Positions 33,520-64,000 of a DNA stretch of 64,000 nt are shown one piece after another. The DNA is from Schmidtea polychroa. Lineage: Eukaryota. The notes beneath the pieces were generated by a model. That model searched no databases. It worked only from the letters and a program-made list of their open reading frames with translations, and was not told the origin of the DNA. How positions within the stretch are numbered: the first letter of the stretch is position 1; each line of letters starts with the position of its first letter. Position numbers and translations under genes: made by a program. The stretch is from NCBI GenBank assembly GCA_044892525.1, contig CM097885.1, forward strand, positions 25,918,001 to 25,982,000. The letters run 5' to 3'.

Positions 33520-33608
33520 GTAATAAAATTTAAATAATTTTTATATACTTATAATAATAAATTTAAACAAATATAAACAATAATATTAATGAAATGAGAT
33601 TAATTAAG

Positions 33609-34232: not shown

Positions 34233-34254
34233 AATACATTATTATTATTTAAAA

Positions 34255-34392: not shown

Positions 34393-34423
34393 ACAAATTA
34401 ATTAATAAAATACATCATTGACA

Positions 34424-34750: not shown

Positions 34751-34764
34751 AATATAATATCATA

Positions 34765-35344
34765 ATGGGTGCTAAGAATTCATTACCGGATAAACGTGGA
34801 AAGATTCAATCGTACTTTAAGAGATCGTTTGAAAAAATATTTTGTATATCAAGGCAATAAAACGTGGATAAATGTATTGTCGAAAATAATTTACAGTTAC
34901 AATTTTTCACCTCATAGAGGAATAAATGGAATGAGACCAATCGATATTTATTCAACAAATAATATTGATACTTGGATATCACAACAAGATAAATCAAAAA
35001 CAAAAAAGCCGAAATATAAAGTAGGAGACCATGTTAGAATAAGTAAAATCAGTGCTTCTCCATTCATCAAGAATTTTGATAACAATTGGAGTGATGAAGT
35101 TTTTAAAATATCGAAAATAGATACTAATCAAAATCCGGTCATGTACTTTATTACAGATAATGAAAACGATCAAGTCAGTGGCAAATTCTACGAACCAGAA
35201 CTACAAGTCATTCCATCACCCACAATCTTCAGAATTCAAAGGATTTTAAAAACTAAATCGGACGGGAAATATAAACAATACTATGTGAAATGGCATGGTT
35301 ATAAACATCCTAGCTGGATATCTGAAAACCAATTGATTAAATAA
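34765..35344 (+). pseudogene. RVE integrase C-terminal half with chromodomain; N-terminal ~600 nt deleted
   Basis: VERFNRTL..YN..H..YKVGDHVRI..YYVKWHGY. Compared with 62479-63656, sequence is lost at ~34793. Confidence 0.9.
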
Positions 35345-35349
35345 ATATT

Positions 35350-36381
35350 ATGAAGGAAAACCAGTTTTATATGATTTTACCTAGTAATAGTTGTCCTCTT
35401 ATTTATCCTGATAATAATGCTAGTAATTTTAAAGTTGAATTTCAAAACCCAATTTATTTGAATGGGAAGTGGGAAGTAGCTTTGATTGATTTTACATTTG
35501 TGTATAATCATTTTCCGTATTACAGTAATTCATGGGTACAATACGAATTTAAAATATCATGCGAAGAAACTAAATACTTGAAAATTGATAATCAAAACAA
35601 AATCTTAGAAATTTTAAATTCTACATATAATCCAGATGTTGATGTGTTCTTGGAAAGATATGAAAACTTAGTGATAGTTTGTCCACATGTTCCATTTAAA
35701 ATATCATTTCTTGACACCAAACATGCATCTAAGATTGAATTAAAAACCATATCAATCATTAGCAAAACTGACCATTGTCGAATTAAATTACCTAAATTTA
35801 CTGAAAATAATATCATTGAACAAATTGCGATAACTATAAATTACGATATCAAGACAAAATTCGAACATTATTTTGAAGATGAATTATTCTTAACTACTTT
35901 ATCAGAGTTGCGAGGGTATTTAATGACAATTAATCCATCTCCATTTAAAGAAATAAATCTTCAAAATCAAGAATTGGTAAAAATAACACTTGTAGATGAT
36001 ATTTCAAATATCACCTTTGATCAAAAATTAACAAAAGCTTTAGGATTAAAGAATCAAACTTATAATGAAAAAGACTTTGTTGGTGTGAAAATTCCAAAAA
36101 TATTTAAAATTCATCAACAAATGTTTATTTATTCTAATATCATTGAACCAATAAATGTTGGTGATGTAAGAGTTCCTCTATTAAAATCGATATGGATTAA
36201 AAGATATGAACAGGGAGAGGTAGTACAGTTAGAAATAAAGAACCCAATGTACCTTCCAATTTCATCTTCATATATAAACAACATTGAAATTAATATTCGC
36301 AACGATAGTGGAAATTTAGTTAAATTTTCAAAAGACACCAAAACACATTTAACACTACATTTTCGTAAAATAAATGAATAA
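35350..36381 (+). CDS. Minor capsid protein (penton)
   Basis: FYMILPSNS..YPDN..F...PIYLNGKWEVAL N-terminus and FIYSNIIEP..VGD..PLL..LHFR C-terminus, typical of Polinton pentons. Confidence 0.88.
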   Translation: MKENQFYMILPSNSCPLIYPDNNASNFKVEFQNPIYLNGKWEVALIDFTFVYNHFPYYSNSWVQYEFKISCEETKYLKIDNQNKILEILNSTYNPDVDVFLERYENLVIVCPHVPFKISFLDTKHASKIELKTISIISKTDHCRIKLPKFTENNIIEQIAITINYDIKTKFEHYFEDELFLTTLSELRGYLMTINPSPFKEINLQNQELVKITLVDDISNITFDQKLTKALGLKNQTYNEKDFVGVKIPKIFKIHQQMFIYSNIIEPINVGDVRVPLLKSIWIKRYEQGEVVQLEIKNPMYLPISSSYINNIEINIRNDSGNLVKFSKDTKTHLTLHFRKINE

Positions 36382-36697
36382 TCCTGATATTGTAAACTTT
36401 TATAGTAATAATCAATCTGGTGGAGATTTACCATATTTTGTTGGTAAACAATATGGAACAGGTTGGTTAAAAACAATAGGTCGATTTGCTTTACCAATTC
36501 TTAGACGCATAGGTAATTTTGGTATGAAAACTGCACATGATGTAATAAATAACAATTCAAAAATTCTACCTGCTTTAAAATCAAATGTTTTATCTGAAAT
36601 TAAACATTCACTACCTGATGTAATTCAACATTTGCCTACTGTAATTAATAAAGTATCTGATGTTTTTAATAAACAAGAGAATGAGCAAAAAGGTTAA
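36374..36697 (+). CDS. Small membrane-active/core protein (pVI-like position and features)
   Basis: QSGG and QYGTG motifs followed by an amphipathic WLKTIGRFALPILRRIG segment; lies between penton and hexon. Confidence 0.65.
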   Translation: MNNPDIVNFYSNNQSGGDLPYFVGKQYGTGWLKTIGRFALPILRRIGNFGMKTAHDVINNNSKILPALKSNVLSEIKHSLPDVIQHLPTVINKVSDVFNKQENEQKG

Positions 36698-36763
36698 ACG
36701 CAGAAAAACATTAAAGAAGCATATAAACAAAAGAATGAAAGGCTTTGGAACTATATTCGAAAA

Positions 36764-37990
36764 ATGATTAGTGCAAAATCTGAATTATGTATTTTTGATA
36801 GACCATCACCTCAAGCAGTAATTGAACATGGTTCATTTGAAGATATTTATCCAACGAATTCAATTACGGATACTGGTACCTCTTCAATTCAATTTTACAT
36901 TAACGGATCTCAAACCGAATATTTAGATTTGAATGATATTTTACTTTATCTTCAGTTGAAAGTTGTAAATAATGTAGGTGAAAATATTTCTGATGATTCT
37001 GTTGTAACTGCAAACAATTTCTTTTTCCAAACTCTTTTTAAAGAAGCTGAATTAATTTTTAATTCTATTAAAGTTGAAGGAGGAAATAATACATTTGCTC
37101 ATAAAGCATTAATCGAAACCATATTAGATTACAATCATGATACAAAACGTACATGTTTAGAAGGTATGGGGTACAGTGAAGATGATAATATAAGAAAAGC
37201 GTGGATTGCAAAATCTAAACCATTTTCATGATGTTCACCAATACAATTTGATTTTATGGATCAACCAAAATATTTATTACCTGGTGTTAGTGTCCAAATT
37301 AAATTGACGAGATCAAGTCCATCACATAGTTTAACATGTACAAAAGTAGAACCTAAAATTGAATTATTAGATGCAAAATTAATGGTAAGAAAAGTTCGAG
37401 TTGAACCATCCGTTTTAGCTGGTCATCAAATTGGACTTGCTTCAAGAAATGCAATTTATCCTTTGAGAAGCAAGGAAGTTGTCGAATTTTCGTTACCTAC
37501 TGGATCTTCTTCTTTTTATAAAGAACAAATCTTTGGTGATCGGCGATTACCAAATTTTATCCTTGTAACATTTCAAAGAAATAAAAGAAATAATGGATCA
37601 CTAACAAATTCTTATTCAATGTACGACCACAATAATGTAAAATCAATAACTTTATTGAAAGGAAGCGACTATCGTGAAAAATATAGTCAAGATTTTGAAA
37701 ATGATAATTATAGTACAAGTTATATGCAGTCAATAATTAGAAACATGGGTTACCTTAATAAGAATATTAATTGTGGAATTAGTATGTCTGACTTTAAAGA
37801 AAAGTATCCATTCTTTACATTTGTATTGGCTCCAGACTTTGATCTTAATCAAAGTCAATTGCCACAGCAAGGAAATTTAAGACTTGATATTAAATTTGGA
37901 ACACCTCTAACAGAATCAATTTCTGTAATAGTCTATGGCGTCTTTGAAAAAGAGATTCAAATTACATCCAATCGTACAGTACTAGTGTAA
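36764..37990 (+). pseudogene. Major capsid protein (double jelly roll), one in-frame TGA at 37229-37231
   Basis: KSELCIF, EYLDLN, QPKYLLPGV..IKLTRS and GNLRLDIKF motifs; both ORF halves share a frame. Confidence 0.88.
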
Positions 37991-38003
37991 ATAAAGTTTG
38001 AAA

Positions 38004-38438
38004 ATGATTGGCTTGAACTATAAACCAAATTAGGAAACAATAATTATTAAAAATGAAGTAAGAATTTCATTTTTATTACTTTAATTTATTGATAATAGTT
38101 CTATTCAGATTGAATACATAGGTCGAAGATTGATCGGAGCTGAATTTCTTGGAGTTTTTCCATTAGATAAAATACCATATATTGATGTAAACAAGGCTTT
38201 AATTGTAAATACTCAATCTTTTAATCTCAAGGGAGAGCATTGGCTCGCAGTTTATGTGAAACCGGAAAAAATATATGCATTTGATCCCATGGGGTTTTAT
38301 TATCCTCCTCTATTAATATCAAAACTTCAATCATTGTTAATGCCAATTGAATATAATAAAATTCGCTATCAAAGTCCATTGACAAAAACATGTGGGCAAC
38401 ATTGTTTAGCGTGGTTGAAGTCAATGAAAGATCTTTGA
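38004..38438 (+). pseudogene. Adenain-like cysteine protease, spliced; first exon damaged
   Basis: IVNT..GEHW, FDPMG, Q....TCGQHC catalytic motifs; GT-AG intron 38058-38108 joins NE|IEYIG in frame. Confidence 0.85.
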
Positions 38439-39088
38439 ATATAAGAAAATTTAATCAAATAAATATTATCTTGTTAGTTTGTAATTTTTTATGTCATCCT
38501 ACTAGTAAATATAATTTAATGGTATGTGATTACGTGTTTGGTTTCTTGAATTTTATTGGTTACTATTTTATTGAATCATTGTTGTGTAATATGTAGTATA
38601 TAAATGAAAACAATTCATTTAAAAGTCACCTTTATCAATACCCAAACTTTTGTAAGTTTTATGTAATTAATTAATTAATAATTCTCTTATAATGTTTTCT
38701 AGGTAATGAATTGCAACAACAACAACAATTACAACAACTCAAATAACATGAACAACATCAATAGCAAGATTTGCAACCACTCAAATAACATGAACAACAA
38801 AAACTTAAACACCAACAATGATGAAATGGTTCGAAATAATTCCAAGAAAATTAATGCAAACATGATAAAATGTAAGTATTATATATATTTTTCAGTATTT
38901 AAAGATATTTTCATTTTAATTAAATTAATATTAATTTAAATATTATATTTCATTTTAATTTATTTTACAAATTTGAATTTAATTTAATTTACTCAAAGTA
39001 AAAATTAAAACAATTTTGAATTTATTAGATAATAATAATAATTTATGATTTTATTTAAATTTAATTATTTTAAATCAATTTAAATTTA

Positions 39089-39730
39089 TCAATAAAAAAA
39101 AATTTTTTTAAATGCAATATTTTTAATTAAATTATAATGTATACCATAACATAAGAAACAAATAAAGACTTCTAATATATTAGTATCAATTATTTTCCAT
39201 ATAGGGCTGATTGTTTCTTTTCCTTCTTTAAAACCCTGAATTTGAATTTTTATCATAAAATGTGAATTTTCATTTTCTTTTTTAATATTTTCTAAAGCAT
39301 AATCTTTATCACAATTCATAAATGTAAAGTTTTCATTGAATTGAATATTTTTATTGATAGCCAACAATAATTCTAAAATATTTTTTTATCGATATCTCCA
39401 ATTTTACCTACTTGTATATTATATAAACTCTGTTTCAAAGTTACAGGTTCCTAATAAAAAATTTAATTAATATTTGATTAAATGATATAAATATATTTAC
39501 TTTAAATGAATAAGTTATTGGGTATTTTAAATATTCCATAGAATATTGTAGGAACTGAACAGGAGATTTTCTAATAAGATTAACTGCCGATGTTGAATTT
39601 TCCTGTAGAATTAACTTTATTATATCTGAATTTACTTGTTTCTCCATCTTTTTCACTGAACTTTCTAGAATAATGATTAAGCAATACTAGATAATGATAA
39701 TAAAATTATTTTATATTGTTGCATCATTAA
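39089..39730 (-). pseudogene. Spliced accessory gene, homolog of 59517-60108, 1-nt frameshift in an A-run
   Basis: QFLQY..YPITYSFK|EPVTL..IQIQGF..PIWKII, with the same intron position as the intact copy. Confidence 0.75.
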
Positions 39731-40030
39731 ATATAATAATTTTATGCACTCAGTATATATATATTAATTTCAAAAATCGAGTTGACCAATTAGATTCTTT
39801 TTAACAAATCATTTTAATTTTATTGGATAAAAGATTTTATGTGTGTGTATAGTATTTTTGATTTTTTAAATATTTATTTCTAATAATCAATTTGTGATGT
39901 TCATATATTCATTTTCATATATTCATTTTTATTTATAATGCAATCCTTTGATAATTTCTTTTGAAACTTAGGTATCTTATATCCAAAGTTTTGTAATTCT
40001 TCCTTTCATGACAAAGATTGTCATAAAACT

Positions 40031-43000
40031 ATGGAAAAATACTATGGCCAACCCCATAACCGTGTTATTTATTTTGTTTGCCCCATTTGTAATTCCACTG
40101 AAAAATTAAATTATTCTAACTTTTATGATCAACATAAAGATCATTTAAATCGATTTAATCTTTTAAAGAAAAAACAAATTTTTAAATTACCAATTAATTT
40201 TTCAATTAATAAAAGGAAATCTGATTTGCCTATAAGTAACCCTCGTCCATCTAAAATTAAAAATTTAAATAATAATGATCAAATTATTATTCTCTCGGAT
40301 TCTGAAGACGATGATGTAGTTTTAAATAATATGGTAACTCTTCCTGATTTTGAAAATGATGTGGATATAGATTTTCTATCTGACTCTCAAAATGGAGTTG
40401 ATATAATAACTCTTTCTGACTCTGATGCCGAAATAATTAATGATAGTACGATACAACATGGTGGATCATTAGAACCGGTTGTAAATTATGATTTACGTAA
40501 ATCACATGCCATAGTTAAAATGATGGTTGAAAATTTAAATTTAAATTCTTTAACCGTACCCACGCCCTTAATTAATAAATTTAATAACGTTACCAGAGAA
40601 ATGGGTTCTGTAAAGATTCAATTTTGTATAGAAGTGGAATTTGAAAAAGATGGAGAATTTCAATCTTTCGTCATTTCAAATTCTGCAAGACCCATGAGTG
40701 ATACCTTTTTAGATGAAGGTATTGCTATTCTCAATGAGAAAATTACTTTAATTAATGAAAAGGGAAGTAATTGGATTATTAATAAAGTTAAAGAAATACA
40801 TTTTGTTATTACAAAATTTTCTCAAATAAGTAGATTGAGTGGGAGGGGTTCTCTTCCAACTCCTAAATCATTATTAAATAAACATTGCGTAATAAATATT
40901 AACAATACGGATGATTTGTGTTTCATCTATAGCATTTTGGCTATTTTGAAATACGATGACGTTGATGGCAATCATAGAAATCGAATTAGTAATTATAATC
41001 TGTCTGATCTAGTCTTTGATCCTTCTGGCTTACCGATGCGTCTCTGTAATATACCTAAATTTGAAGATAAAAATCCAGGGCTTTCGATTAATGTTCTTGC
41101 ATACGATGAGGATGCTTTAGTGAATATTTTAAATAATTCTGAAGTATTAAAACATCCTTATGTTGACATCATACATAGATCGAAAGTTGTAGGCGGAAGA
41201 CCGATTAATTTAATTTTGTTGGAAAGCAGTGATTCTTTTCATTATATAAGAGTCACTAATCTTGATAGACTTTTAAAATGTCGTAATTCTACTGTTACTA
41301 GTACTCGAATTCAAAGTCTGTGGTGTAATCGCTGTTTAAATGGCTTCCGTACAATTGATTCTTTAGATAAACATAAAGGTTTATGTGAGAAAAATCAATT
41401 AGGAACAACTTTATATACTTTACCATTAAATAAGAATTTATATTTTAATGATTGGTCTAAAACAGTTACTCCCCCTTTTGTGGTTTACGCTGACTTTGAG
41501 GCTATCTTACCTACTGATAATAGATACTTTCAAAGGCACTTGCCGATTTCTGCAGGTCTTTTGCTAATAAATAATTTCACAGGGACTAAATTATATAAAA
41601 GTTTTTTAAGGTTAGATTGTATTGTTAGTTTCCTTAAAGAGATTGAAAAAATTGGTATGAAAACAGTTTTACCTTATTTTTATAAAAATTCGAAAAAGAA
41701 AATTATTTTTACAGATGCTGACCTTATTTCTTTTTCTTCCGCAGTTATGTGTTATCTTTGCAAGAAAACTTTAGTAAACCCGACTAAAGATCATGATCAC
41801 TTTACTGGTAAATATTTGGGAGCAGCTTGTTCAACTTGTTATAATTCTCGTCAAATAAGATATGAATTTCCAATTGTTTTCCATAACTTGCGAGGGTATG
41901 ATCTTCATCATATCCTCAAATACGGATTGAGTAGCTTTAAATCTTGGAATATTTCATGCATTCCAACGACAACTGAAAAGTTCTTAACATTATCTGCGAG
42001 AATAGGTGGTTTAAATATTAAATTTATCGTTTCCTGCCAATTTAATAATAGTTCGTTAAATGACGCTGTTAAAACTCTTACTAATTTACCGATAACATGA
42101 TCAGAATTTAAGGGAACCATTGTTAATAGTAAAGGAATTTTCCCATATAATTTTGTCACTAGTCTTAAAGTGCTTCGGTCAACTCCCCAATTACCACCAA
42201 TTTGGGATGGTGTTACTGAAGACGAATATTCTATGGCTGAAATTATATGGAGGGAAACCAACTGTAATAACCTTTGTGAATATATGATGGTCTATCTAAA
42301 ACTAGATGTCTTTCTTTTAGCTGACTTTTTCCAGCAGTTTCGAAATAAATCTTTAGCTCATAATCGTCTTGAACCTTTAAACTTCTTGGGCATTCCCGGT
42401 ATGTCTTGGAATTCAGCTCTGATGACTTTAGACGAACCCATCGAGTTGATTCAAGACATGGAGATGTTTAATTTCTTTGAGGGTGGTATAAGAGGGGGGT
42501 TGACATTTGTAAACAAACATTATGTTAATACAAATGAAAATACTGAACTTCTATATATCGATATTAATAATTTGTACGGCTGGGCTCTTAGCCAAAAACT
42601 ACCTAGGGGTGAATTTTCTTGGGTGACGGATGAGCCTGAATTAATTAATTTATTAAAAGACTGTGAATCTATTGATCTAGATTCACTTTCATATGGGTAT
42701 ACTATGGAAGTGGATCTAGATATTCCAACATCTATTCACGATAAACTTAATGATTTTCCGGTTGCAGCTGAAAAAATGTGTGCTCCAGGATCTAAAGTGG
42801 AGAAGTTGATGCTTACACATTTACCCAAGAAGAACTATGTTCTTCATTGGAAACTTCTACAACTTTATCTTTCTCTTGGAGTAAAAGTTACTCAAATTCA
42901 CAGGGCTATCAAATTTCATCAGTCTACTATATTCAAAAATTACATTGACACAAACACCCAACTTCGAGCTGTGTCAACAAATACTCTTGATAAAAACTAT

Positions 43001-43921
43001 TTTAAGCTTCTTAACAATAGTTTATATGGAAAGACAGTCGAAAATTTGAAGAAACGATTGAACTTGAGATTGTGTAACTCAGCTTCTAAACTGATTACTT
43101 ATTCCTCTAAACCCACATTTAAAAAGACTTATAAAATAGATCATGACTTAATAGCCGTTCTATTAAATAAGGATTCTGTGTGTTTGGATAGACCTAGTTA
43201 CATTGGTCAATCTGTGCTGGATCTATCCAAATTACGTATGTATCAGTTGCAATATATTGATTTACAAAAATATCGAGATGATTTTAGCTGTGAAATCAAT
43301 ATTATTGCAGGTGACACTGATTCCTTCTTTTTAGAGGTTAAAGGATGCAAAATAGATGTGCTTTTACCAGCTATGGTAAGAGATAACATGCTGGATACAT
43401 CGAATTATGATTCATCTCATGAATTATATTCAAGAGCTCTTGATTCCGTCATTGGTAAATTCAAAGATGAAAATAAAGGGGGTAGATATAAGGAATGGGT
43501 GTTTTTAAGGCCTAAATGCTATAGCCTTTTGGGTGATAAAGAGAGCAACAAGGCTAAGGGAATAACATTGAAGGGTACCGACTTAAAACATCAATCGTAC
43601 CTTGATTGTTATCATAATAATTCGATGATTTCAGTACCACAATCTCGAATAGTAAGTAAAAATCATCAGTTATTTACAATAAAAAATATAAAATTAGCTC
43701 TAACTAATAATGATGATAAGAGGCATTGGGTAAATAAAAATGAAAGTGTAGCATATGGTCATTATAAAATAGTTAACACGGTTATGGGTCATAGTAACAA
43801 TGCTGAAGTTAGTGATCCGGACGAAGAAAATGATCAATACGTTCAACCATATTTCCCAAATGATGATTATGGTCACCCACACTTTCCATATGAAAGGGAA
43901 CATCAATATGTTCTTGAATAA
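40031..43921 (+). pseudogene. Protein-primed DNA polymerase B, one in-frame TGA at 42098-42100
   Basis: Exo motifs YADFE and FHNLRGYD; DHDHFTG zinc module; YIDINNLYG, KLLNNSLYGK, GDTDS, PKCY. Confidence 0.95.
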
Positions 43922-43976
43922 ATTTTGTATTGAAATAAAATTTATTTAACATAATTATTGTTTTAGTTCTTATTTG

Positions 43977-44934
<958 letters not shown>

Positions 44935-46791: not shown

Positions 46792-47964
<1,173 letters not shown>

Positions 47965-48199: not shown

Positions 48200-50477
48200 A
48201 TATTTTCATCACTGATATATTTTCAATTTCCTTTATCTTCATTTGTTTTTATATAATCAAACGATATTTCATGTTAAATGTAAAACAAAATATTGATCAA
48301 TAGTCTAATATTTATAAAGACAACGGAAGAATTTCCATAAATTAAATATAGCCGTTGTCACTAAATTAATTAGGACTGAATATTTACAATGGTCCAGATA
48401 ATATAATTCATCTAGATAATATAACGTAAATTATTATTATTATTAGGAAAAGTTAATTATTCAATGTCTAAAATAACTATAAATATTTAAAATTGTAAAT
48501 ATCGCATAATTATAAATTTTAGTATAGGGGCCCATCGAAGATTGACAAAAACTGAACCCTTACATTAGGTGTACAAGAACATTACAAGAGTAAATTACTA
48601 TAATTTATTTTGTATAACTCATGCGTTATGTGAAATATTACATTTCTGCAGCTTTTAATAGTAAAAGATTCTACAAATATTTTATTAAAGAAAATTGATT
48701 TGTAAATAGAAATGAATGTTCAACGTTTTTATTAAAAGTGACCCTCGGTGAGGATCGCAATAAACAATAAAAAACTGTTATTAAATAATTATAAGATTAG
48801 TTAAAACAAACTGGGTAAACAAATGGAACATAAAATAAACATTTTTTATGTGGAATCTTTCATATTTCGAATGGTTCCTAATTGTACAAAGGTGATAATT
48901 ATCGACATTATTAGTAATTATTAATCTTTCGTTTCCGAACGGTGTATAAAGATTATATTGCTACAACGGATGTTATTTAAAAATACTGATAAGCGATACT
49001 ATAAAAAGGAACGTACAGAAAGTAATGTACATACTTTTTTCTCAATATTTTCTGATTCTTATTATTTACAAGAGATAATAGAGTTTTCTTGCGATTTTTC
49101 AAAACAAGTTTATATATTTACTGATTCTCATTTTCCATTTCATAACTTTAACTAAAATATCCAGTAAATCATCAATAACGAAATTAGGGAATTCTTGTAA
49201 AATATTCATTCTTTTCATGTTCGGAGCTTTCAGAAATGTACTAAAAAATGGGAAACTTCGGTGATAATTGACCGTTTTAACAGATTTGGCATGTTTTTGA
49301 CCGTTTTTGGTTTTAAATTATGTGAAATGAAATTTGAGGTTGGAAAGTCTTTGATAATATGTTTTTTGAAGGAGTATAACTGGTTTTGGGAAGAATTGAG
49401 TTTTTTTTTCAATATTCTTTTAAGTTTTCTCAAGTTGGATTTTGATATTGTCAACTTTGTTTTAACTTGCGCTTTTGAAAACATGGTAACTTATTTAGTC
49501 TATTTCAGTTTTCTTTAAAAACCATGACTCCTTCGCTGTTTAAAATATTTGTTCTAACTCTTAATTCATCTGGTTATTTTTGAGTGAAATTGAGAAAAAT
49601 ATAGCCATGTGGGTTATTATTTGCATCTAAAAATACACTGATTAGAAAATTTCTATTATTTGAATATGCTTGTCTTAAAAGAAAATCAATCACAGTAGTA
49701 TCCCTCAGATTTTTGAAGATTACTAAATATTGTACATTCAAATTACGAGTTTTTTTATTACCGCTTTGATGAAAAAAATTTTGAGTTATAAAAATCACAA
49801 TGACACCACCATGCTTACTAATCTTTGTGAATAAATTATTGAAATCCTTTCTTTTATTAGTTTATTGATATAAAACATCAATTCGAGTAACTTTAATTTT
49901 AATAACTTCCGAATAAATACAGTTTTTCCACTACCTCTAAAACCAACAATTTGATAAACAGTATCATGTCTTAATTCCATTCTCAAATATAAATTAATTA
50001 GTATTGTTTATATTAATCACTCGAATGAACTCTTATATCAAAGAAATCAGTTATAAAATTTTTCTAAACATGTTATCAAATATAAATTATATATGAAAGA
50101 CTGATGTGAGCAATATGATATTCCCTCCTGAAAAGCTTCAGCAAATTGTTGACTAAAGTGGAAAATACCCTATTATATTTTTCAAATATGGAAAATGTAG
50201 AATAATGGAGTGTAAAGAACGTCTAAGTGAGTTGAATGGAATCACGGATATTTTCATCACTGATATATTTTCAATTTCCTTTATCTTCATTTGTTTTTAT
50301 ATAATCAAACGATATTTCATGTTAAATGTAAAACAAAATATTGATCAATAGTCTAATATTTATAAAGACAACGGAAGAATTTCCATAGATTAAATATAGC
50401 CGTTGTCACTAAATTAATTAGGACTGAATATTTACAATGGTCCAGATAATATAATTCATCTAGATAATATAACGTAA

Positions 50478-50517
<40 letters not shown>

Positions 50518-50659
50518 GGAAAAGTTAATTATTCAATGATTTAAATGACTATAAATATTTAAAATTGTAAATATCGTAGAATTATAAATTTTAGTATAGG
50601 GGCCCATCGAAGATTGACAACAACTGAACCCTTACATTTGGTGTACAAGAACATTACAA
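48200..50659 (+). repeat. Near-identical ~400-bp direct repeats (48200-48587 and 50248-50659)
   Basis: Same sequence apart from a few substitutions and (ATT)n length. Confidence 0.9.
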
Positions 50660-51824
50660 TGCACTACTGTAGATTTAATTTTGCTTAGCTATGGTTATAC
50701 TATAGAAGTAGATTTAGAAATACGGCATCTGTTCACGACTTACTGAATGATTTGCCAGTAGCCACTGAAAAGATGTGTGCACTGGGTTCGAAGGTGTAAA
50801 AGTTGCTTTTAACGCATTATTCAAAAAAGAATTATGTTCTTAATTGGTGACTTTTGCAGATGTGTTTGAAATTAGGTGTAGTTGGATCGAAAATACACCG
50901 TGCTATAAAATTTTCTCAAAACACACTTTTTAAGAAATATGTAGACATAAACACAGTTTTGAGAGCTTCTTCCACCACTAAGCTCGATAAAAACTACTTT
51001 AAATTATTAAACAACCGTCTTTACGGAAAGACTATTGAAAATTTAAAGAAAAGAATAAATTTAAGGTTATGCAATTCATCTAAAGCTTTCATCGCATATT
51101 GCACTAGTCATCATCGTCGACGCTCTCAAGATTAATAATAAATGGATTACGAATCCATGCAGCTGGTTTCAACTCTTCTACTACAAAATAATTTTGAAAC
51201 GAATTTTCAAGGGTGGTCAAATGTTCAAATGGTCATTTTTTCTTGAATGTTTGTACTTGCTAGGAGTAGCTCGTCTAGATTTATGAAGTTTGCATAATTA
51301 TTATTTTCAAACCGCCTTTTCCAAAGGAGTATCTTTTCTATAAATGATCTCAATTTTTCTCCGGCATCCATAAGTGTCATATTAAGTCCCTGAATAGAAT
51401 GATTTAAGTAATTTAAATGAGAAAAGATGTCTGCCAAGTAGGTGAGACCCATCACGAATTGGGTTTTCTGAAAGGTTTCATAGAGAACACTCTTTTTTTT
51501 TAGATATATAGAAACTTCCACTCGAAGTTCATGCATTCGAGATAAAACTAGCCCCGGGTTAAAAGCATCAAATTATTAGATAAATATCGTAATGAGTTTA
51601 ATTGTAAGATCAATATTGTAGCTGGGGATACTGATTCCTTCATTTTCGAAATAATAAATGTTAAGCTTTCTGTTATAACAACATTAAAATTTACACAGTT
51701 CCGCAGTTCAGAATAACAAGCAAAATTCACCAATTATATAGTATTAAAAATTATAAAACAGCACTCAATTGCAACGATGACAAACGCAATTGGGTAGCGA
51801 AAAACAAAAGTTATGCATATGGAC
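49100..51824. mobile_element. Polinton remnant: core and ATPase (-), TBP-like N-terminus (+, from 50070), pPolB C-terminal fragments (+)
   Basis: ORFs 49230-49986; MLSNINY..SGKYPIIFFKYGKCRIM; KLLNNRLYGK, AGDTDS and DDKR..AYG. Confidence 0.85.
51110..51550 (-). pseudogene. hAT (Buster/ZBED5-like) transposase fragment inside the pPolB remnant
   Basis: LTYLADIFSHLNYLNHSIQG..KILLWK; no TIRs seen. Confidence 0.75.
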
Positions 51825-54738
51825 TAGAGTTTGCAAAAAAACCGGTTTTTGCAAACCGCGGTTTTCGGTTTTTCAAATTTGAGAAACCGCGGTTTTCGGT
51901 TCGGTTTTCGGTTCGGTTTTCGGTTTCTAAAAAAGTAAAAGGAAATAAAAAGGCATAAGTATATTTATTGCTTTTTCAATAATATATTTCTATTTAAAAG
52001 TATAATGTATTTCATACAAGAAATATATATAATAAAATCATAGCTGCAACATATAAAATAGTAATAATGTTGTTTAATAAATAATATAACAATATTCCTA
52101 TTCTGTCGACAATGCAGATATGAATTTCTAATTCACTTACATTGTTCACAGAGAATATAAAATAACACAGATAATTAATAGTATTTTGTTTATACATATA
52201 CTATAGTTCAGTAATATTAGTATATGTATGTAATCGTACATTTGTACAACTAATATAAATAAAAATTAAAATAAATAAAATAGAAAATTTCATTTAGCTG
52301 TTATTGGAATACAATAATCAAAATTATATTGCATTATTGCAGATTTTTGTTATTTAGTTAATTAAGAACTATTATTTATTCGATAATGTTTCAAAAATAC
52401 TAAAGAATTAAGCGAATAATCACTAAGGCGTGATCTTAATTTTCTACTAAAGTTCGAAGACGTGGAAAATACCCGCTCCGATTCTGTAGACGTTGGGCGT
52501 ACTGTTAAAATAGCATCGTATAGTTGTTGAAGAACTGTTGTTCTTTTGCCTGTTTTCTTATATATAGCAAATTCATCTTTAGGAGAACTAAATGGCTTTG
52601 CAGCTACTTCTTTTGCAGCAGAATTAATAGCAGCATTTATTTCATCTGATAAAGATGTAAATGTAATATTCTGATCAGTTGGAGAATTGGTTTCACACAG
52701 AAATTCTTCACAATTATCGATTTGGTTTGGATACAACCTATTCAATAAACGAGTGCCAAAACTTAAATTTTCTTTTGTGGGTACAACTTGTTGAAGAAGG
52801 CATGACAACAAAGAACTCAATTCCCGATTCTGTCTTGAATTTAAGCGTGTTTTTATATTTTCTCGTAATTGGGTTATAATTATGTATGTATCTCCCGCAC
52901 AATTCGATTCGATACCATCGAGCTTCTTTAACAGAAATATAATTGCACCTTTTGCTGTTGTTAGATTAGCATCTTTTCTTCCTAATGCAAGTACAGTTAG
53001 TTCTAGTGGGTTCAATATACTACACAACAGCTTAACTACATCAAAGTCTATCAATGAAATTAAATTTGTGGCGTTTAAATCATTTAACACTTCCCTTATC
53101 GATTCGCTAATTTTTAGAAATTTTTCTAGCATGGGATGGATAGAGTTCCATCTGTGTTGAACATCTAATTCTAAATAAAGTTCATGACCTAGCTTATCCA
53201 TAACGTTTTTTTGCAAAAGATCATTACGGACTGAGGAAAATTTAAAAAAGCGAACGATAGCTCGTACTTTTTTTAGAGTTTCAGTTATTGAAATTCTCTC
53301 TCTAACTTCTTCAATGGTATTATCTTCGCTCAAAATAAAATCACAACTATCGCTACTAAATTCGTTTTCAGTATTATCATCGTCCTCAGTATAGGATTCT
53401 TGATTTTTTTCACTATTTTGATTATCGTCAATTTTGGAGTAAAATGTGTCGCACACTGCAAGGTGAAGACCATGATTCAAGCATAATTGGACTTCTGCTG
53501 GACATTCTCTTGCATATTTCACCATGACACTAGCCCCGTCATTGGACGTTGCAACAATGTCTTGCTCAAACGAAAGATGAAACATTTTTAAATGGTCAGA
53601 CATAGTTGATATAATCTTGGCTGCGCTACAAGATCCAAAAATCCTGACTAATCCAAGATTCATTACTTTTCCTTCTTTATTATGGGCATTGATGTTCATA
53701 TAATGACGCTGTCGTGAGCTAACCCATTCGTCCAAAGTGATACTAAATTTCTCTCCCTTTTGTTTTTCTTGGTCAAAAAAGTTTATATACATTTTTTTCT
53801 TTTTCTCATATTCAAAATGAATAAGCGCCATTGTCCAATTTTCGCTTTTTGGTAATTGAAACCCCTTATCACTAACAGCCTTTCGAATAAAATTAGAATT
53901 TGTTATTCCACGAATAGTAAAACCATCTTTTGTGGCCAACTCGTCCACAATCTCACCAAGTGTTAGCTTTGGAACATAATTGAAAATTGTTTTTTGTATT
54001 AACGCACTTGTGCTCGCAACAGCTGTTCTTTTGCAAGAAATTTTGTGGATATTTCGCATGTGGTTTATCATATCAGAAGTCGATCCGTTCGAATTAGTTA
54101 TTTCTACTCCACATTTATTACATTTTGCTTTATTGTCGGATATATTTGATGCTGGTATTTTTATAAAATATTCCCAAACCGTTGATGACATCATTTGAGC
54201 GTTTGTTTGGCCACTGAAAGTGTTTCAAAAATTTGTTTAGTAATACAAATCTACGTATTATCTTAAAAGAATTATATAAGTACATATTCAAAATTTTAAT
54301 TACCTACTCACCTATAGTTTTAAAACAATATATAATACGTATAAACAACCTATAATTTACATCAAATCATTCAATAAATTCAACAAGAATCAAAATAGTT
54401 ATCCAATTATACAATCCAAGAAAGTAAATTAATGAATTATAAATTTTAATTTGTAATCAATTTTAAAGTTTTTACAAATTTATTTGACAGCTATAATTTT
54501 ATAGTGGGCATGGATTCTGACTGGTGGGCATGGATTCCGACTTACTATAAAGTATGAAAAATTGTATACAATCAGGCAAAATTAATATTTTGAGAGAATT
54601 TTTTTATTTTACGTAGCTTTAAATGAAATATTTTTTGAAAACCGAAAACCGCGGTTTCTGCAGACGGTTTCCGGTTACGGTTTTTTGAGACAAAAACCGC
54701 AGTTTCGGTTTCCGGTTAACCGAACCGTGCAAACTCTA
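51825..54738 (-). mobile_element. Complete hAT (Ac-like) transposon, 2,914 bp
   Basis: Perfect TIRs TAGAGTTTGCA / TGCAAACTCTA, exact 8-bp TSD ATATGGAC, subterminal AACCG/CGGTT arrays. Confidence 0.96.
52362..54194 (-). CDS. hAT transposase with BED zinc finger (610 aa, uninterrupted)
   Basis: VWEYF..CNKC..HMRNIH, LDEW, DGA, CLNH, RWNS and SERVFS motifs. Confidence 0.93.
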   Translation of the reverse strand: MMSSTVWEYFIKIPASNISDNKAKCNKCGVEITNSNGSTSDMINHMRNIHKISCKRTAVASTSALIQKTIFNYVPKLTLGEIVDELATKDGFTIRGITNSNFIRKAVSDKGFQLPKSENWTMALIHFEYEKKKKMYINFFDQEKQKGEKFSITLDEWVSSRQRHYMNINAHNKEGKVMNLGLVRIFGSCSAAKIISTMSDHLKMFHLSFEQDIVATSNDGASVMVKYARECPAEVQLCLNHGLHLAVCDTFYSKIDDNQNSEKNQESYTEDDDNTENEFSSDSCDFILSEDNTIEEVRERISITETLKKVRAIVRFFKFSSVRNDLLQKNVMDKLGHELYLELDVQHRWNSIHPMLEKFLKISESIREVLNDLNATNLISLIDFDVVKLLCSILNPLELTVLALGRKDANLTTAKGAIIFLLKKLDGIESNCAGDTYIIITQLRENIKTRLNSRQNRELSSLLSCLLQQVVPTKENLSFGTRLLNRLYPNQIDNCEEFLCETNSPTDQNITFTSLSDEINAAINSAAKEVAAKPFSSPKDEFAIYKKTGKRTTVLQQLYDAILTVRPTSTESERVFSTSSNFSRKLRSRLSDYSLNSLVFLKHYRINNSS

Positions 54739-54999: not shown

Positions 55000-55720
55000 T
55001 AACATTGCTATATATTTCGACCGTTTAACAATCTTCTTCAGGCTAGGAATCGAATTAATCACAACTAAATGAACATAATAATATTCAAACAAATTAATAA
55101 CTAATAATCGTATTAATACTGTATCATAAAATAATTTTAAAAAAACATTTTTTTAATCATACAAAAATCAATATAATTTTAAAAACACGCAAAATTGTTA
55201 AAATTGTCATATAAAATAATTTTGTTTGTAAAATTAATATCAAAAATTAATCTAGATTTAAAATTAAAAATTAAAAATTTACAAAAAATTTAACAAACAA
55301 TATCATCCAAATATTCAATATACAAGTTCAATTATTTAAAAACATTCGAAATCCCTATATACGGGTTACTTTGAATATTAATTAAATGATACAACGATCT
55401 AATTAACAACACCTCGCACGTTAATCGTTCCCAGTAATTGCTCAAACTCCTCGATGTTTTTACTGGTACACTTCTTAAAATGATCACTAATATGGGTCGA
55501 TCCATTCCATCGGCAATGTTCAAGAGTGCAGAGATGACGGACAATCTCTCCACCTATTACATGAAAATTGATACAAGAGTTCTGAACACAGAAACAATCC
55601 TAAAAATAGTCTATCTACATGTTTAACGATCTTATTCAAGCATTTTAAGATTTGAAGATATTGTCGAAGAGTTAATTACTAAGAACGTACATCCTAACTT
55701 TTACTAAAATCATTATTTTA
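55000..55720 (-). mobile_element. Probable Penelope-like retroelement remnant (GIY-YIG end)
   Basis: LLYQFSCN and RLTCEVLLIRSLYHLINIQ resemble the termini of GIY-YIG domains; heavily decayed. Confidence 0.45.
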
Positions 55721-56883
55721 TCAATAAAGTAAAAAATATGACATTAAAAAATTAAAATTTACTAAAAAGTACCAACTGATCATTTACAAAGTTGTTAATT
55801 ATTGGGTGCAATTAGTGAATACGGGTCTTTCTATTAGTATCACATTTATGCAATCCAAATGTTCCCAAAATCTAAAAATCTTTTACCATTAATAATTATT
55901 AATAGATATGAACAACTTTTACTGCAAGTTTCAAGTTTATTCAAAAAAAAATATGAGCATTTTTATCCATTTTAAACAAAAATAATTTCCTCAAACAATA
56001 TCAACGCAACAAAATATATTTCAGTTACTTTTTCAATATATCTGGAAAATGGCTTCAAAGTGAGATTCGACATGGTAAAAAATTATTTATTTGCTTATAA
56101 TTATTTTGTTATCAATGAAATGCTTTTTTGTTTATATTTACCGATTTATTATTTTTAAGTTTATCCTTATTTATAGTGTTTATAAAACATTTAATGAAAT
56201 TATGAAATTTTATTTCGCCACTCACCAAAAAAAAACGAAATAATTTGCTCAATTCACAGACTGAGGAAAATAAATCAGAATTGGAAATAATTACTAAAAT
56301 TTTTATATTTTATAAAATAATTAAAAATATAAATAATTGTTAATGATTTTTTAATGATTGTTAATAAAACAAATCGTTATTTATTTTAATTTTATATTTC
56401 GAAGACTTTTGAATAAAAAATTATGATAATTATAAAACATTTATTAAGTGTTAAATAACAGAGAAAAATAAAATCATTAATAAAATAAACATAAGTAGTA
56501 GGATGTGTCACCTCCAGGACATGTCACATCCAGGACAGGTCAAGGTCAAATTTTAAGGTCAAGGTCATTTTTAAAGGTCAAGGTCAAATTTTTAAGGTCA
56601 AGGTCAAGTTTTTTAAGGTCAAGGCCAATTTTTTTCCCCTCGAATACATCAACTCAAATTTAACAAGGTTAGTCACACAAATCGAATTCTGAAATCAAAC
56701 AAATGCATTTAATAAAAATTAAAATCATCAACATACACAACCGCCGTTCGCCCGCCCGCCCCGAAGGGGCTGGCGCGGTAGTTTGTAAATTTGGTTTAGT
56801 TTGAATATTATTATTATTTGAAACATAGTTTAAAACATGATATTATTACCTGTATTTCTGTTCACTATACAAAACAATTCAAC

Positions 56884-57892
56884 ACATGATATTATTACCT
56901 GTATTTCCGTTCACTATACAAAACTATTCAACAAAAAAAAAAAAAAAAATATTTGAAATAAAAGTTGAGAATGAAGGTTAAATTTCACAAAACAAGGTTA
57001 AATGAATTTCTACATCTAAGCTCTTATTTGTCTGCGGTAGAAAAATATGGAAAGTAATTATTTTGTAAATACCAACTTAGGAAAATTAAAACAAACCGAA
57101 ATAAAAATGCATTATTCAAAACGATAAAATAGAAAATAATTATTTTCTGTATTTTTATTCCCATCTTTTCACTTTAACACGATTGCAGATCTGATATGGC
57201 GAGGGTCATTGATGACTACCTACAATCTTGGCCATCGATGGACATCTATTTAAATTTTGGTGGCCAACTGTAAACGGGTTCTTATTTTTAAAAATTTTTT
57301 TAAAAAATGCTCTAAAAATAAAATATTTTATTCTCATACAAATAAATTCATTATTTTAAAAGAATTTTTGTCAAATATCAATAAATTAAACATGATATTA
57401 ATACCTGTATTTCCGTTTACTATACAACACAATTCAACAAAAAAAAATAAATATTTGAAATAAAAGTTGAGAATGAAGGTTAAATTTCACAAAACAAGGT
57501 TAAATGAATTTCTACATCTAAGCTCTAATTTGTCTGCGGTAGAAAAATATGGAAAGTAATTATTTTGTAAATACCAACTTAGGAAAATTAAAACAAACCG
57601 AAATAAAAATGCATTATTCAAAACGATAAAATAGAAAATAATTATTTTCTGTATTTTTATTCCCATCTTTTCACTTTAACACGATTGCAGATCTGATATG
57701 GCGAGGGTCATTGATGACTACCTACAATCTTGGCCATCGATGGACATCTATTTAAATTTTGGTGGCCAACTGTAAACGGGTTCTTATTTTTAAAAATTTT
57801 TTTTAAAAAATGCTCTAAAAATAAAATATTTTATTCTCATACAAATAAATTCATTATTTTAAAAGAATTTTTGTCAAATATCAATAAATTAA
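56884..57892 (+). repeat. Tandem duplication of a ~505-bp unit
   Basis: ~56884-57390 and ~57389-57892 are nearly identical; a short extra copy of the unit start lies at ~56834. Confidence 0.92.
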
Positions 57893-57959
57893 AGATAAAA
57901 TATAATTTCTCATAATTTTATTTGAATAATAATCAAAAGATCCAAAAAGTGAAAAATTG

Positions 57960-58475
57960 TTAATGATGCAAAGGTGGCACAATAATGACTGGCTTATCGG
58001 CATGATGAAGAACGTAATCACTTACACTGCCCAGAAATGTTCGCCTTAATAAACCTTCTACTCGATTTGCCATTAGTATGACATCAGCCCGATGGTCGTG
58101 ACAGACAGAGATTATGCATTCTCCAACTCTTGAATCCACCCGGATGAAGCCTTTGCATTTCCAACCCTTTTCAGTTAATTTATGTATATAATCTATCACT
58201 AACGCTTTGCCTTTGTCAATTTGCTTTTGAATTTTCGCATCCAACTCTTCCATCGGCAGCCAGCCAGCCTCCATTCCGATTCCTACAGCAATCGTGTTAT
58301 ATATGGGCTCAACTATGTGAATCAAATGAACGACATCATATTTTCTCATCATATTGTTTGAATACTAGTCCAATGCTCATCGGCTGACTTCACTTTTGTC
58401 CATCGGAATGATTATTATTCTTTCTGATTCATTCTTCATTTCCACCGAGGTTTTTGCTCGTTCCGAATCGGTCAT
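57960..58475 (-). pseudogene. Universal stress protein (UspA domain), intronless, two in-frame stops
   Basis: RIIIIPMDKSEVSR*ALD*Y..VHLIHIVE..ADVILMANR..RRTFLGSVSDYVLHHADKPVIIVPP; 172 codons in one frame. Confidence 0.9.
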
Positions 58476-59057
58476 TTTTAAATTTCGTTGGTAAAATATT
58501 TCTTATATATCAAATGGACTTGATTGTGGTGTTAGATAATCTCTGACGTAATATTTTAACTAATCACAATTTAAAGTCTATTTGCACATGTAATGTAAAC
58601 ATTTCAATTTTACAGCAAATAAAAATTATTGAAATTAAAATTAATAAAATAAATTCACAAAAAATAAAAAAGAAATTATTGAATTAAGCCGACAATGGGC
58701 TTTAGGTTATGAACTATTCTTTATACAATTCCTTTTTAACTCTGATTCCAATTTTCTTACATTTCTATTCGACTATTTCTGTTTTTTTTTTTTGGATTTT
58801 TGTGAAAAGTTGTGGGTTAGGCTGAAAATTAATTAGTAAAAAATTGGCACTTTTTGTGTTGTCGAAATAATTGAAATAAATATTTTAAAAAATGTAAAAA
58901 CTGAAACGTTAAATATCATTGCAAGTTTGCTTGTCTTTTTATTATATGTATCGTGTTGAAATATCTAATTTTTCTTATAATCTATCTATCGATCATCTTG
59001 TTGCTTTTGAATAATAGTATAAACATAATTATTTTTTCATTTTAATTATTTTCAACC

Positions 59058-59444
59058 ATGTCGGAAAAAGGTAAAATATGAATTTTATGTTTATTAATTT
59101 TTTTTTTTTATTTAGCATATATAATCAACTTTTTGATTGAAAAATTAGAAGAAATATCTAATGTAAAAATTAGAGAATTTATGAATGTTTCAGAGAAATT
59201 AAAATGGCCGTATTCAGACGATGAAATTAATGAAGATGATATGTCATATGAATCTGAAAATATTTCCCAGCAAGAAGATGAATATACTGATTTGCCTAGT
59301 GAAGAACTTAAGTCATGTATTGAGAATTCTACAACAAATAAATTTCCAAATGAATCTAAACAAGAAGATGAATCTATTGTTTCTACTAATTGTATTGATC
59401 ATATTGTTGAAAATATAATGAAAAGAGATTGTATTGAAGATTAA
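59058..59444 (+). CDS. Spliced acidic accessory protein, unknown function
   Basis: 13-nt first exon (MSEK); GT-AG intron 59071-59115 splices in frame to ORF 59133-59444; TATAAACAT 40 nt upstream. Confidence 0.65.
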
Positions 59445-59516
59445 TAAATCTAAAACTTTAGTTATTTTCAATGATTTAAAAACACCAAAACACTAATAAA
59501 GATGTATTAAATAAAT

Positions 59517-60108
59517 TTAACATGAACAATGTTCCTCTTCAAACTTATCTTCGGCTTTTATAATTTTCCAAATTGGTTTGATTCGGTCTCTGCTTACATT
59601 ATACCCTTGAATTAATATGGTAACCATGCAGGTTATTTTGCTCATCTTACCACCATTGGAAATCATATCCAAATCGTTTCTAATGAACATATCTTCATCA
59701 TCAAATTCAATATTTTCATTGATCCTCTGAAATAATTGTCCCAATAGCATCTTGTCGTGAAACTTGATTTTGGAAAGTCTCACATTGTAGAAACATTTTT
59801 CCAGAGTTACTGGTTCCTAACAATAAATAATAATAATAAAATCCAAAATAATTTATAAAAACTTACCTTAAATGTATAGGAAATTGGACAATACAAATAA
59901 TTTAGTTTGTATTGTATGAATTCGACTGGCTTTTTTGTATCCACTCGAACATTGACCAAGGTTTCCGTGGATAATGCGGCTTCTTTAAATTTCCTTTTTC
60001 CGAATTCCTGAGCGGCATCTGCATTTTTTCTCTTCAAAACTCCTAGATTAAAAAACTAATAAATGGAATATGTGTAAACGACAACAAACCTGTAATTTGA
60101 TTATCCAT
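59517..60108 (-). CDS. Three-exon accessory protein (164 aa), unknown function
   Basis: Introns 60043-60089 and 59817-59866 give an uninterrupted 495-nt frame; homolog at 39089-39730. Confidence 0.8.
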
Positions 60109-60310
60109 TTGTAGTTATAATATTTAATAATTTGAACCAGATATTTTATACTAATTTCATTGTAAACAAGTTTCAAGTGAAAGGCATGATCAAAACGTGA
60201 TCAACTAGTTCATTTTATGCTAAATAACAAAGTCTGAAATGATTTATTGTACACAAAGAAATATTATAGGTTAATTAAGGTTATCACAAAACAAATATAA
60301 TTATATTTTA

Positions 60311-60678
60311 TTACAACAATACATTTTTTCGCAATTCCACAAGTAATGCATGAATTATTTCTCGTTTCTGTAGATTTACAAAACATGTACAACTATCATC
60401 CCCACAAGTATTCTGCATATTATTTTTACAAAAATCACAATTTTCAACATCATCGGTATAACATGTAATCGTAGCATGATCCATATGAATTAAATCTATT
60501 ACATTTATTCCAGTTATTTCATAAATTTTGTAAAACACAACTTCTGGAGCACAATACATTAAGGAATTGTTCAAATTCGGATAAAAATCTTCAATTTTAT
60601 CAATCAAATTTTTAGTATAGTTTCTAAACAAAAATCAGTAAATTTAAAATAAAAACAGTTACCTTCATGTTCAATCAT
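60311..60678 (-). CDS. Cys-rich accessory protein; 5' splice needs a 1-nt correction
   Basis: YPN..YCAP..TGIN..ENCDFCK..CGDDSCTC..HALLVELR; homolog at 32644-33029. Confidence 0.65.
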
Positions 60679-61183
60679 TGTTGAATAAATATTCAAGCAA
60701 ATCCTCGTTACTTATATTTGAAGAAATTGTTAAAGATCCAATCAAATCCTTTACATCGTTTATAATTCCTTCAACAATAGTATGAAAATTTAAATTTTTA
60801 ATACCTAGTACAACTATTTTACCACTCGAAAATATATTTACACATAGTGGATTATATTTTGTATAACGCAGAGCGGGAAATAATTCAGGCTCATATATAC
60901 AATCTCCATCTAATAACTTTGCTAAATTATTCAAATTAATAGATTGTTCAACCTTGGTAGCTATAGTAAGACTTTGAACTTGAATATCTTTGATATTATA
61001 TTGCAAATTCTCGAATTCGATAGGCTTCTTACAACCCATTATACGACATTTACCATTTTTGAAAAATATAATAGTATATTTTCCAGTTTTGTCAACATAT
61101 TGTTGTGGTTTACACTTGGGGAAATTCATCATACCAACAGTTTCCAAAGACACACGACCTCTATAATTAATATTTGTCAACAT
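60671..61183 (-). CDS. TATA-binding-protein-like protein (170 aa), element-encoded
   Basis: IIFFKNGKCRIMGCK and YEPELFPAL..VNIFSSGKIVVLG TBP half-repeats. Confidence 0.9.
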   Translation of the reverse strand: MLTNINYRGRVSLETVGMMNFPKCKPQQYVDKTGKYTIIFFKNGKCRIMGCKKPIEFENLQYNIKDIQVQSLTIATKVEQSINLNNLAKLLDGDCIYEPELFPALRYTKYNPLCVNIFSSGKIVVLGIKNLNFHTIVEGIINDVKDLIGSLTISSNISNEDLLEYLFNND

Positions 61184-61302
61184 TTCTACTGAATATTTAT
61201 AAAAATCAAGTATATATATATATATATGTTATATTATAGAGTAATTAAATCAATTTATTCTTTACGATATAAACAAAATTAATTTTTAAATAAATATTAA
61301 AA

Positions 61303-61929
61303 ATGGAACTAAAAAATGATGCTGTATATCAAATAGTCGGACCAAGTGGTAGCGGCAAAACTTTGTTTGTTTGCAAATTACTAAAATCACATTTATTTAA
61401 ATCAAAATTTAACAAAATTTATTGGCATCGAGGTGCTGATCAAGAACACGGATTGACTCAATCAAGTTTCTGTAAATTGAAAAATATGAAAATAGTAGAG
61501 GGATTTGATAAAAATTGGTCCAGTAGACTAAAGAAGGGGGATGTCATAATTATTGATGACTTGTATCAAGAAGCTAATAAAGAAAAGAATTTTAATAATT
61601 TATTTACCAAAATCAGTAGACACGTTGGTGTAACTGTTATTTTTATAACTCAAAATCTATTTCATCAAGGTGGTGCACATCGAACACGTAATTTAAATGT
61701 ACAATATTTAGTTATTTTCAAGAATCCTAGAGATGTAACAGTGATTGATTTTCTTGCACGTCAACCATACCCTAACAATCGTAATTTTCTTATCAGTGCA
61801 TTTCAAGATGCTACAAAAATACCTCATGGATATATATTTCTTGATTTCACACAACAATGTCCCGATGATTTACGAGTAAAAACAGATATTTTCAACCCAA
61901 AAGGTGCCATGGTTTATAAACAAAGTTGA
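61303..61929 (+). CDS. A32/FtsK-like packaging ATPase, intact
   Basis: GPSGSGKT, IIIDD, SRH, ITQN. Confidence 0.95.
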   Translation: MELKNDAVYQIVGPSGSGKTLFVCKLLKSHLFKSKFNKIYWHRGADQEHGLTQSSFCKLKNMKIVEGFDKNWSSRLKKGDVIIIDDLYQEANKEKNFNNLFTKISRHVGVTVIFITQNLFHQGGAHRTRNLNVQYLVIFKNPRDVTVIDFLARQPYPNNRNFLISAFQDATKIPHGYIFLDFTQQCPDDLRVKTDIFNPKGAMVYKQS

Positions 61930-61947
61930 AAACCTCTATGAATAATA

Positions 61948-62475
61948 ATGTTTCTAAAAGCAAGGGTGAAAAATATTAGGAAATTAAGAAAAAGTATTAA
62001 AAAGAGTATTAAAGTTCCAAAAGTTCCACCAACAACTAGTTATACACCATCTAAAATACTTGTAACTGAAAATTTCTCTGCAATGAATCTTATTTCGAAA
62101 AATCCTAAACCTAAACGTGAAACCCGTAAAACCCGTAAAGCCGGTAAAAAAGTAATTAAAAATCATCGCAGTTTTCCATTTTTTAATGCATTGTTAAAGG
62201 CCCCGAGTATGAAAAGAATGAATATATTGCAATCATTCCCAAATTTTGTTGTCGATGATTTACTCAATATTATACTTAAAGTAGTCAAAGGCAAAATTAA
62301 AATCAGTAAATCAAAAAAGCATTTATTGAGCAAACATAGGAAACCTTTGTTATCATTAGTAAATAATAAAAATCGTAAGCAAATGAGGAAAATTATATAT
62401 AAACAACAAGGTGGATTTATTGGTGCATTGATACCTCTGGCATTATCATTATTAGGTGGAGTTACACAGTCATAA
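61948..62475 (+). CDS. Basic virion core-like protein
   Basis: K/R-rich; ends YKQQGGFIGALIPLALSLLGG. Confidence 0.78.
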   Translation: MFLKARVKNIRKLRKSIKKSIKVPKVPPTTSYTPSKILVTENFSAMNLISKNPKPKRETRKTRKAGKKVIKNHRSFPFFNALLKAPSMKRMNILQSFPNFVVDDLLNIILKVVKGKIKISKSKKHLLSKHRKPLLSLVNNKNRKQMRKIIYKQQGGFIGALIPLALSLLGGVTQS

Positions 62476-62537
62476 ACAATGGGTGCTAATCCTTCATTGC
62501 CCGACATTAAATTTTAATTTTAAATCTTCTTGCTGTA

Positions 62538-63656
<1,119 letters not shown>

Positions 63657-64000
63657 ATTTTTATACTATTTTACCGAGCAATAGTTGCCCATTAATTCAT
63701 CCAGACAATCAAGCCAGTAAATTTATGGTCAATCTCCAGAATCCGATTTCTTTAAATGGTGACTGGGAAGTTGCACTGCAAGATTTTACATTCGTGTACA
63801 ACACATTCCCATTTTATAGTCAATGTAAGATTGATTTCAAAAGGAATATTGTGAAAACATGTAGCGGTATCTTTATTATCAGTAATTATGATAAAACATA
63901 TCATATTCCGAACCAAATATTAGATTCGCATTGCTATATATTTTACAAGGATGGATTAAATATCAGTTGTGATTTTAAACCATTTACAATAACATTCGAA

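Follow-up and report, generated by a model that had tools for sequence, protein, structure and literature searches.

A USP (UspA-domain) pseudogene lies between a terminus of Maverick/Polinton type and the first accessory gene of such an element in the window, by which the whole analysed stretch of 64,000 nucleotides of flatworm DNA is meant. The best explanation, held with moderate confidence, is that a host USP gene was captured as DNA together with its promoter, and that it is now dead and hitchhikes in a minor subfamily of the element. The features of the second Polinton and its surroundings are collected in Table 1.

Table 1. Features at the left side of the second Polinton (positions in the window)
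Feature	Position	Strand	Evidence or remark
Interrupted host DNA, paralogous to the 3' flank of an actin gene in the window (11252-12382)	56280..56493		81% over 190 nt to 10982-11158
Candidate 6-nt TSD AACATA, left copy only	56488..56493	+	Sequence
Left end of the second Polinton, presumed to be a TIR	56494..56833	+	AGTAGTAG, with five repeats of AGGTCAAGG type and a hairpin rich in GC
Non-coding DNA downstream of the USP	56835..57906		Contains two 50-mers that are nearly identical, and a 502-nt unit duplicated in tandem
USP (UspA-domain) pseudogene, 171 codons	57960..58475	-	Stops at codons 33 and 37; decayed ATP motif
TATA-like word TATATAAG	58502..58509	-	27-34 nt before the USP start
T12 run	58782..58793	+	Near the transition from the shallow USP stretch to the deep body of the element
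Accessory genes, no Pfam match	59058..60634		Sister element has homologues of three
TBP-like gene of the element	60671..61183	-	Pfam TBP, E 6.4e-17; 167 relatives among 244 candidates
A32-type packaging ATPase	61303..61929	+	Pfam Pox_A32, 31 bits (cut-off 22.8)
Integrase with chromodomain, split by a GT..AG stretch with a TTA repeat inside	62538..63656	+	Pfam rve, Chromo

Termini of Mavericks/Polintons start with AG (AGTAGT type). Inspection of the sequence shows that AGTAGTAG begins at 56494 immediately after AACATA, so the start follows this rule, as does the terminus of the complete sister element in the same window. The inner edge of the terminus is approximate (56810-56900). There is no further AGTAGT between 56494 and 62280, and neither an inverted copy of the terminus nor ACTACT with AACATA was found in the window, which ends at 64000. 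The likeness of the preceding DNA to the actin 3' flank extends to 56491 (equal to 11207), inside the candidate TSD, and then stops. The continuation of this flank is absent from 56494-64000, where the sole match is 22 nt long and to a different part; the cut flank does not resume there, and the USP therefore does not represent the second half of the target. Position 56494 is a true insertion edge. The hairpin at 56759-56782 recalls the 3' end of a Helitron, but this candidate was rejected: read depth is still high at 56806, and the hairpin is therefore read as part of the terminus.

Contigs from 4 of 24 listed sequencing runs were compared with the window: X1 and X5, which look like DNA and have the same species label, X7, which is guessed to be RNA, and X13, which has another species label. 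X1 record 1 has 0 differences and extends 26 letters into the terminus (the bridging rule is 31 letters), and X5 record 17 aligns over 55612-56494 with 50 letters left over, as expected from an empty site. The insertion at 56493/56494 looks polymorphic, present in X1 and apparently absent in X5.

The gene body on the other side of the USP starts with the first accessory ATG at 59058, followed by the TBP-like gene, the A32-type ATPase and the integrase with its chromodomain (rve E 1.7e-5, below its cut-off; Chromo E 3.3e-4). The element thus has both a packaging ATPase and a retroviral-type integrase, with 81% and 68% identity respectively to the corresponding genes of the sister element. This sister is a complete 13.7-kb Polinton at 31227-44934 with a 6-nt TSD (AATAAT) and TIRs of tandem repeats. 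Several of its genes are broken, a Peptidase_C5 is recognised by Pfam, and PolB motifs can be seen by eye without a Pfam match. Its order of left TIR, accessory gene, TBP-like gene, ATPase and integrase is the same as in the second Polinton, and because of this match the left end was assigned to this side. The terminus at 56494 and the gene body are probably one element. The competing view, that the end at 56494 belongs to a solo TIR or to a satellite that has Maverick ends but no genes and that the USP is host DNA in front of a left-truncated Maverick, could draw on a right end outside the window and on the truncated Maverick pieces that are common in it (17745-18716, 27668-29202 and 49036-50241). 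It is nevertheless quite improbable, since the cut actin flank does not resume, no closing terminus appears before 64000, and a satellite present in hundreds of copies would be expected to have a deep interior, whereas 56899-58697 is shallower than the body by bin medians, 19 times in X1 and 65 times in X5. The earlier note had claimed an AGTAGT terminus of Polinton type at 56494, an intronless USP pseudogene between it and the first accessory gene, and a location of this gene inside the element. The terminus and the pseudogene are borne out, the former by the cut copy of the actin 3' flank and the latter by the frame on the minus strand with its two stops, and the location inside the element is supported by the true insertion edge, the host flank that does not resume and the gene order.

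Other observations concern the element family and its neighbourhood. The GT..AG stretch in the integrase (62927-63031) is mostly TTA repeat and has the look of a spliceosomal intron, here within a core gene of a Maverick; a second copy has a TTA tract at the matching place, near 28903-28980, and splicing also seems to occur in the accessory genes at 59058-60690. Related families have left at least three further Maverick fragments (17745-18716, 25019-30011 and 49036-51823). The region is a graveyard of Mavericks that also contains a Gypsy element (13077-17447) and a hAT element with an open frame of 620 codons (52362-54224). Two intronless actin genes, 94% alike, at 11252-12382 (minus strand) and 46834-47964 (plus strand), are interleaved with the Maverick pieces, and the flank cut by the second Polinton is the 3' flank of a third actin. 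Records 9-12 of X13 match the element body at 59158-60545 with about 99% identity (1/171, 4/477, 1/240 and 1/324 letters differ), which may reflect a close relative, a mixed sample or a recent transfer of the element. Searches of viral contigs gave 0 matches for the terminus pattern and 0 of 4 for the ATPase of the element.

The USP frame runs from an ATG at 58475 to a TAA at 57960. Two in-frame stops interrupt it, one being codon 33 (58379-58377) and the other codon 37 (58367-58365). With the stops read as X it matches the Pfam Usp profile with 62.9 bits against a cut-off of 24 (E 6.3e-17), and PDB 1mjh with E 4.4e-8; the alignment to homologues has no gap where an intron could lie. An alternative genetic code was rejected: TGA closes the frames of both the ATPase and the integrase, and the stops in the USP are therefore read as stops. 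An alternative frame from the ATG at codon 42 starts at profile position 33 of 141, and a working product from it is unlikely because positions 1-32, which comprise the first strand and helix of the fold, are missing. The USP also departs from the ATP-binding motif Gx2Gx9G(S/T), as given in passages of PMC5793430, by changes in the first two glycines, though these are kept in 12 of 12 aligned homologues. GC content is 0.40 in the USP and 0.26-0.31 in the genes of the element. At third codon positions the USP value (0.40) exceeds both those of the element genes (0.16-0.27, leaving out the integrase, which was probably read out of frame) and those of the host actins (0.28-0.30). Codon bias was therefore rejected as a host signature, and the comparison shows only that the USP is unlike the element.

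Between the terminus and the USP, the tandem duplication consists of units at 56884-57389 and 57390-57893, in which 496 of 502 aligned letters are identical; the earlier note does not mention it. Rfam gave nothing near its gathering score in 55000-60000, only one match far below it. On the other side of the USP, 315 nt of upstream DNA are kept, including the TATA word. The element's own TATAAAC, which stands before 59058, the ATPase and 61948 and differs from TATATAAG, is absent upstream of the USP. No A-tail follows the USP in its own sense, and the A-runs are on the opposite strand. Neither an A-tail nor the loss of the promoter, the marks of a processed retrocopy, was thus seen. The kept TATA word and the missing A-tail fit uptake as DNA without wiring into the programme of the element. 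Flatworm USPs are mostly intronless according to passages of PMC5793430, and a missing intron is therefore no sign of capture by reverse transcription. The suggestion of the earlier note that the USP is captured host cargo is likely with regard to its flatworm matches and tree, set out below, and its kept promoter, while the intronless state is no evidence for capture.

The ancestry of the USP was followed by several searches. Its seven best matches are from Schistosoma and Clonorchis with 40-47% identity, and in a profile-free search the four named among the eight top matches that were looked up are from Macrostomum, Paragonimus and Clonorchis. A tree places the USP on a long branch (0.93) within a group (SH-aLRT 93) that holds 10 USPs named as neodermatan as well as 23 unnamed rows, and from which sponge and oyster stand apart; this tree was made with a quick method without bootstrap on 60 rows, 43 of them unnamed and none named as triclad, with two-domain and fragmentary matches left out. 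The USP is of flatworm ancestry. The actin of the window is likewise of flatworm type, with 97.1% identity to Clonorchis and at most 95.2% to others among 74 near-full alignments. The USP and the host agree in this, and nothing points to transfer: neither a conflict between gene tree and species nor near-identity across species, as known from nematode cargo, was seen. The parent gene was not found, the best identity being 47%, and no near relative was detected at E 1e-30 or better among 1.84 billion representatives.

The USP was also sought elsewhere in the Maverick lineage. Its profile was found in 0 of 81 loci (315 kb) around related TBP-like genes, comprising the best 80 of 128 from metagenomes and 1 viral locus, a result of little weight because the loci are mostly short and about 30-50% identical. 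It is absent from the rest of the window including the complete sister element. In viral contigs 6 stretches matched, of which 3 were confirmed, giving 0 loci, and with the USP alignment 32 matched and 0 were confirmed.

These results bear on the proposal that the USP is or was useful cargo and that a Maverick lineage carries USP genes between animal species. Nematode Mavericks carry other cargo across species at the same position (10.1101/2022.07.12.499685), the match of X13 to the body suggests that the family may cross species lines, and there are contigs over the USP in X7. However, the gene tree agrees with the host, the gene has two stops, also found in a deep contig of X5, and a decayed ATP motif, and the USP lacks both a near relative among the representatives searched and a counterpart in the related loci, mostly short and distant, or in the sister element. 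Such traffic is highly improbable. The claim of the earlier note that the element might be a vehicle for the spread of USP genes is accordingly not supported: the gene belongs to the host lineage and is broken also in the deep contig of a second study, no USP was found in the 81 related loci or in the complete sister element, and the phylogeny gave a flatworm grouping with no foreign origin seen.

Read depth gives an impression of how often the USP stretch occurs, although summed contig depth is not a copy number and the estimates are rough. The bins of the terminus have depths of 513k-882k in X1 and 45k-55k in X5, compared with 310 and 37 for the flank contigs, and are about 2.5-3.6 times as deep as the median body bin, a depth that may include gene-less satellites. 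The depth of the USP as a share of seven body positions is 0.7-8.6% in X1 and 2.1-11.6% in X5, and most of the Maverick family is therefore without a USP. Compared with the flank contig the USP contigs are 12-36 times deeper in X1 and 22 times in X5, so the USP is not single-copy. Record 18 of X5 (58196-58790, depth 807) has three differences, all listed and none in a stop codon; both stops are kept, which indicates that the multiplied form was already broken. A stop-free copy may exist, because contigs drop rare variants. The edge between shallow and deep DNA is estimated at 58746-58764, uncertain by tens of bases, and record 18 extends 26-44 letters beyond it into the deep body. Its end falls within a T-run whose length varies and at which a contig would stop in any context. 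The other copies of the USP are suggested to be located in Mavericks as well. No contig bridging the TIR and the USP stretch, or the USP stretch and the body, by 31 letters to either side was seen in the part of the listing covered, which comprised 32 of 45432 records along with 15 of 244 joints, and no direct joint of terminus and body among those 15 joints. In X13 the terminus and the body are covered and the bin depth over 56899-58440 is 0-5, a hole that proves nothing. X7 has contigs over 57390-58098 and 58370-58793, the one over the first stop with five differences of which two are listed, and almost nothing on the terminus and the flank, unlike the DNA runs; this coverage is a weak hint that the USP stretch is transcribed.

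The elevated depth might also be read as that of a multi-copy unit of its own, either a host tandem or segmental family or the passenger of another mobile element, of which one copy landed in a Maverick and was never moved by it. In passages of PMC5793430, flatworm USPs occur in clusters with pseudogenes. Record 18 of X5 and record 26 of X7 both end at the T-run at 58790-58793, which could be the edge of such a unit; record 18, on the other hand, aligned along its full 595 letters and left no loose end. A 10-nt direct repeat near both edges of the stretch (56853 and 58774) was considered as the TSD of an insert and rejected as chance level, since a repeat as good or better occurs in 135 of 1713 random AT-rich pairs (7.9%). 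Inverted ends of at least 8 nt are lacking between the two edge zones, as is an A-tail in the sense of the gene. A separate unit is thus considered rather unlikely, less so than the other alternatives discussed here.

Under the preferred explanation of a captured host gene, a Maverick/Polinton of an abundant family would have landed in a flatworm genome, within the 3' flank of an actin paralogue. This copy would belong to a minor subfamily with about 1.9 kb of extra DNA placed after the left TIR and before the first gene, and the extra DNA would be a piece of host chromosome with a USP gene and its own promoter. Recombination or template switching, and not reverse transcription, presumably brought it in as DNA. 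After its decay the USP would have been multiplied passively along with the element, reaching roughly 5-35 places as a hitchhiker that gives the element nothing obvious. A further, doubtful step would be that the subfamily has multiplied a transcribed USP pseudogene beyond the copy number of its parent and reshaped the USP family from within, either through small or antisense RNA directed at host USP genes or, before the decay, through new intronless paralogues. If true, the expansions of USPs in flatworms would have in Mavericks a route that has gone unrecognised.

The USP resembles the paralogues described for flatworms (PF00582; passages of PMC5793430) in having a single domain, no intron, a decayed ATP motif and a pseudogenised frame, and also in that the exact promoter word CCAATCA is absent; unlike them, it sits in a DNA element. 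Flatworm USPs are there described as mostly intronless, clustered and often pseudogenes, with the copies put down to tandem duplication and retrotransposition, and the main text has no words starting with 'transpos' or 'horizontal'. No literature joining USPs with Polinton/Maverick cargo was found among open-licence papers. The present case would offer a third route for many intronless flatworm USP copies, while the patchy spread of USP genes in animals is not explained by it.

Host cargo in Mavericks is already well shown in nematodes, where wasp proteases and krma kinases occupy a stretch of 2-5 kb that lies after the left TIR and before the integrase, and where the cargo is intact, has introns, shows more than 95% identity across species and gave rise to a toxin (10.1101/2022.07.12.499685). 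The flatworm USP is found at the same position, with the left TIR to one side and the integrase to the other, and has a composition distinct from the element. In contrast to the nematode cargo it is broken, comes from the host lineage, is carried by a minority of the copies and shows no sign of transfer. The flatworm case would widen the known range of such cargo and would catch the common, neutral outcome, in which a gene is captured at the same position, decays and is copied passively. Pack-MULEs and Helitrons capture fragments of host genes at the DNA level, and these are mostly dead and passively multiplied. The outcome for the USP is closer to these dead passengers than to the nematode Maverick cargo, with the difference that its carrier is a virus-like self-synthesising element and that the whole coding region is carried along with its promoter.
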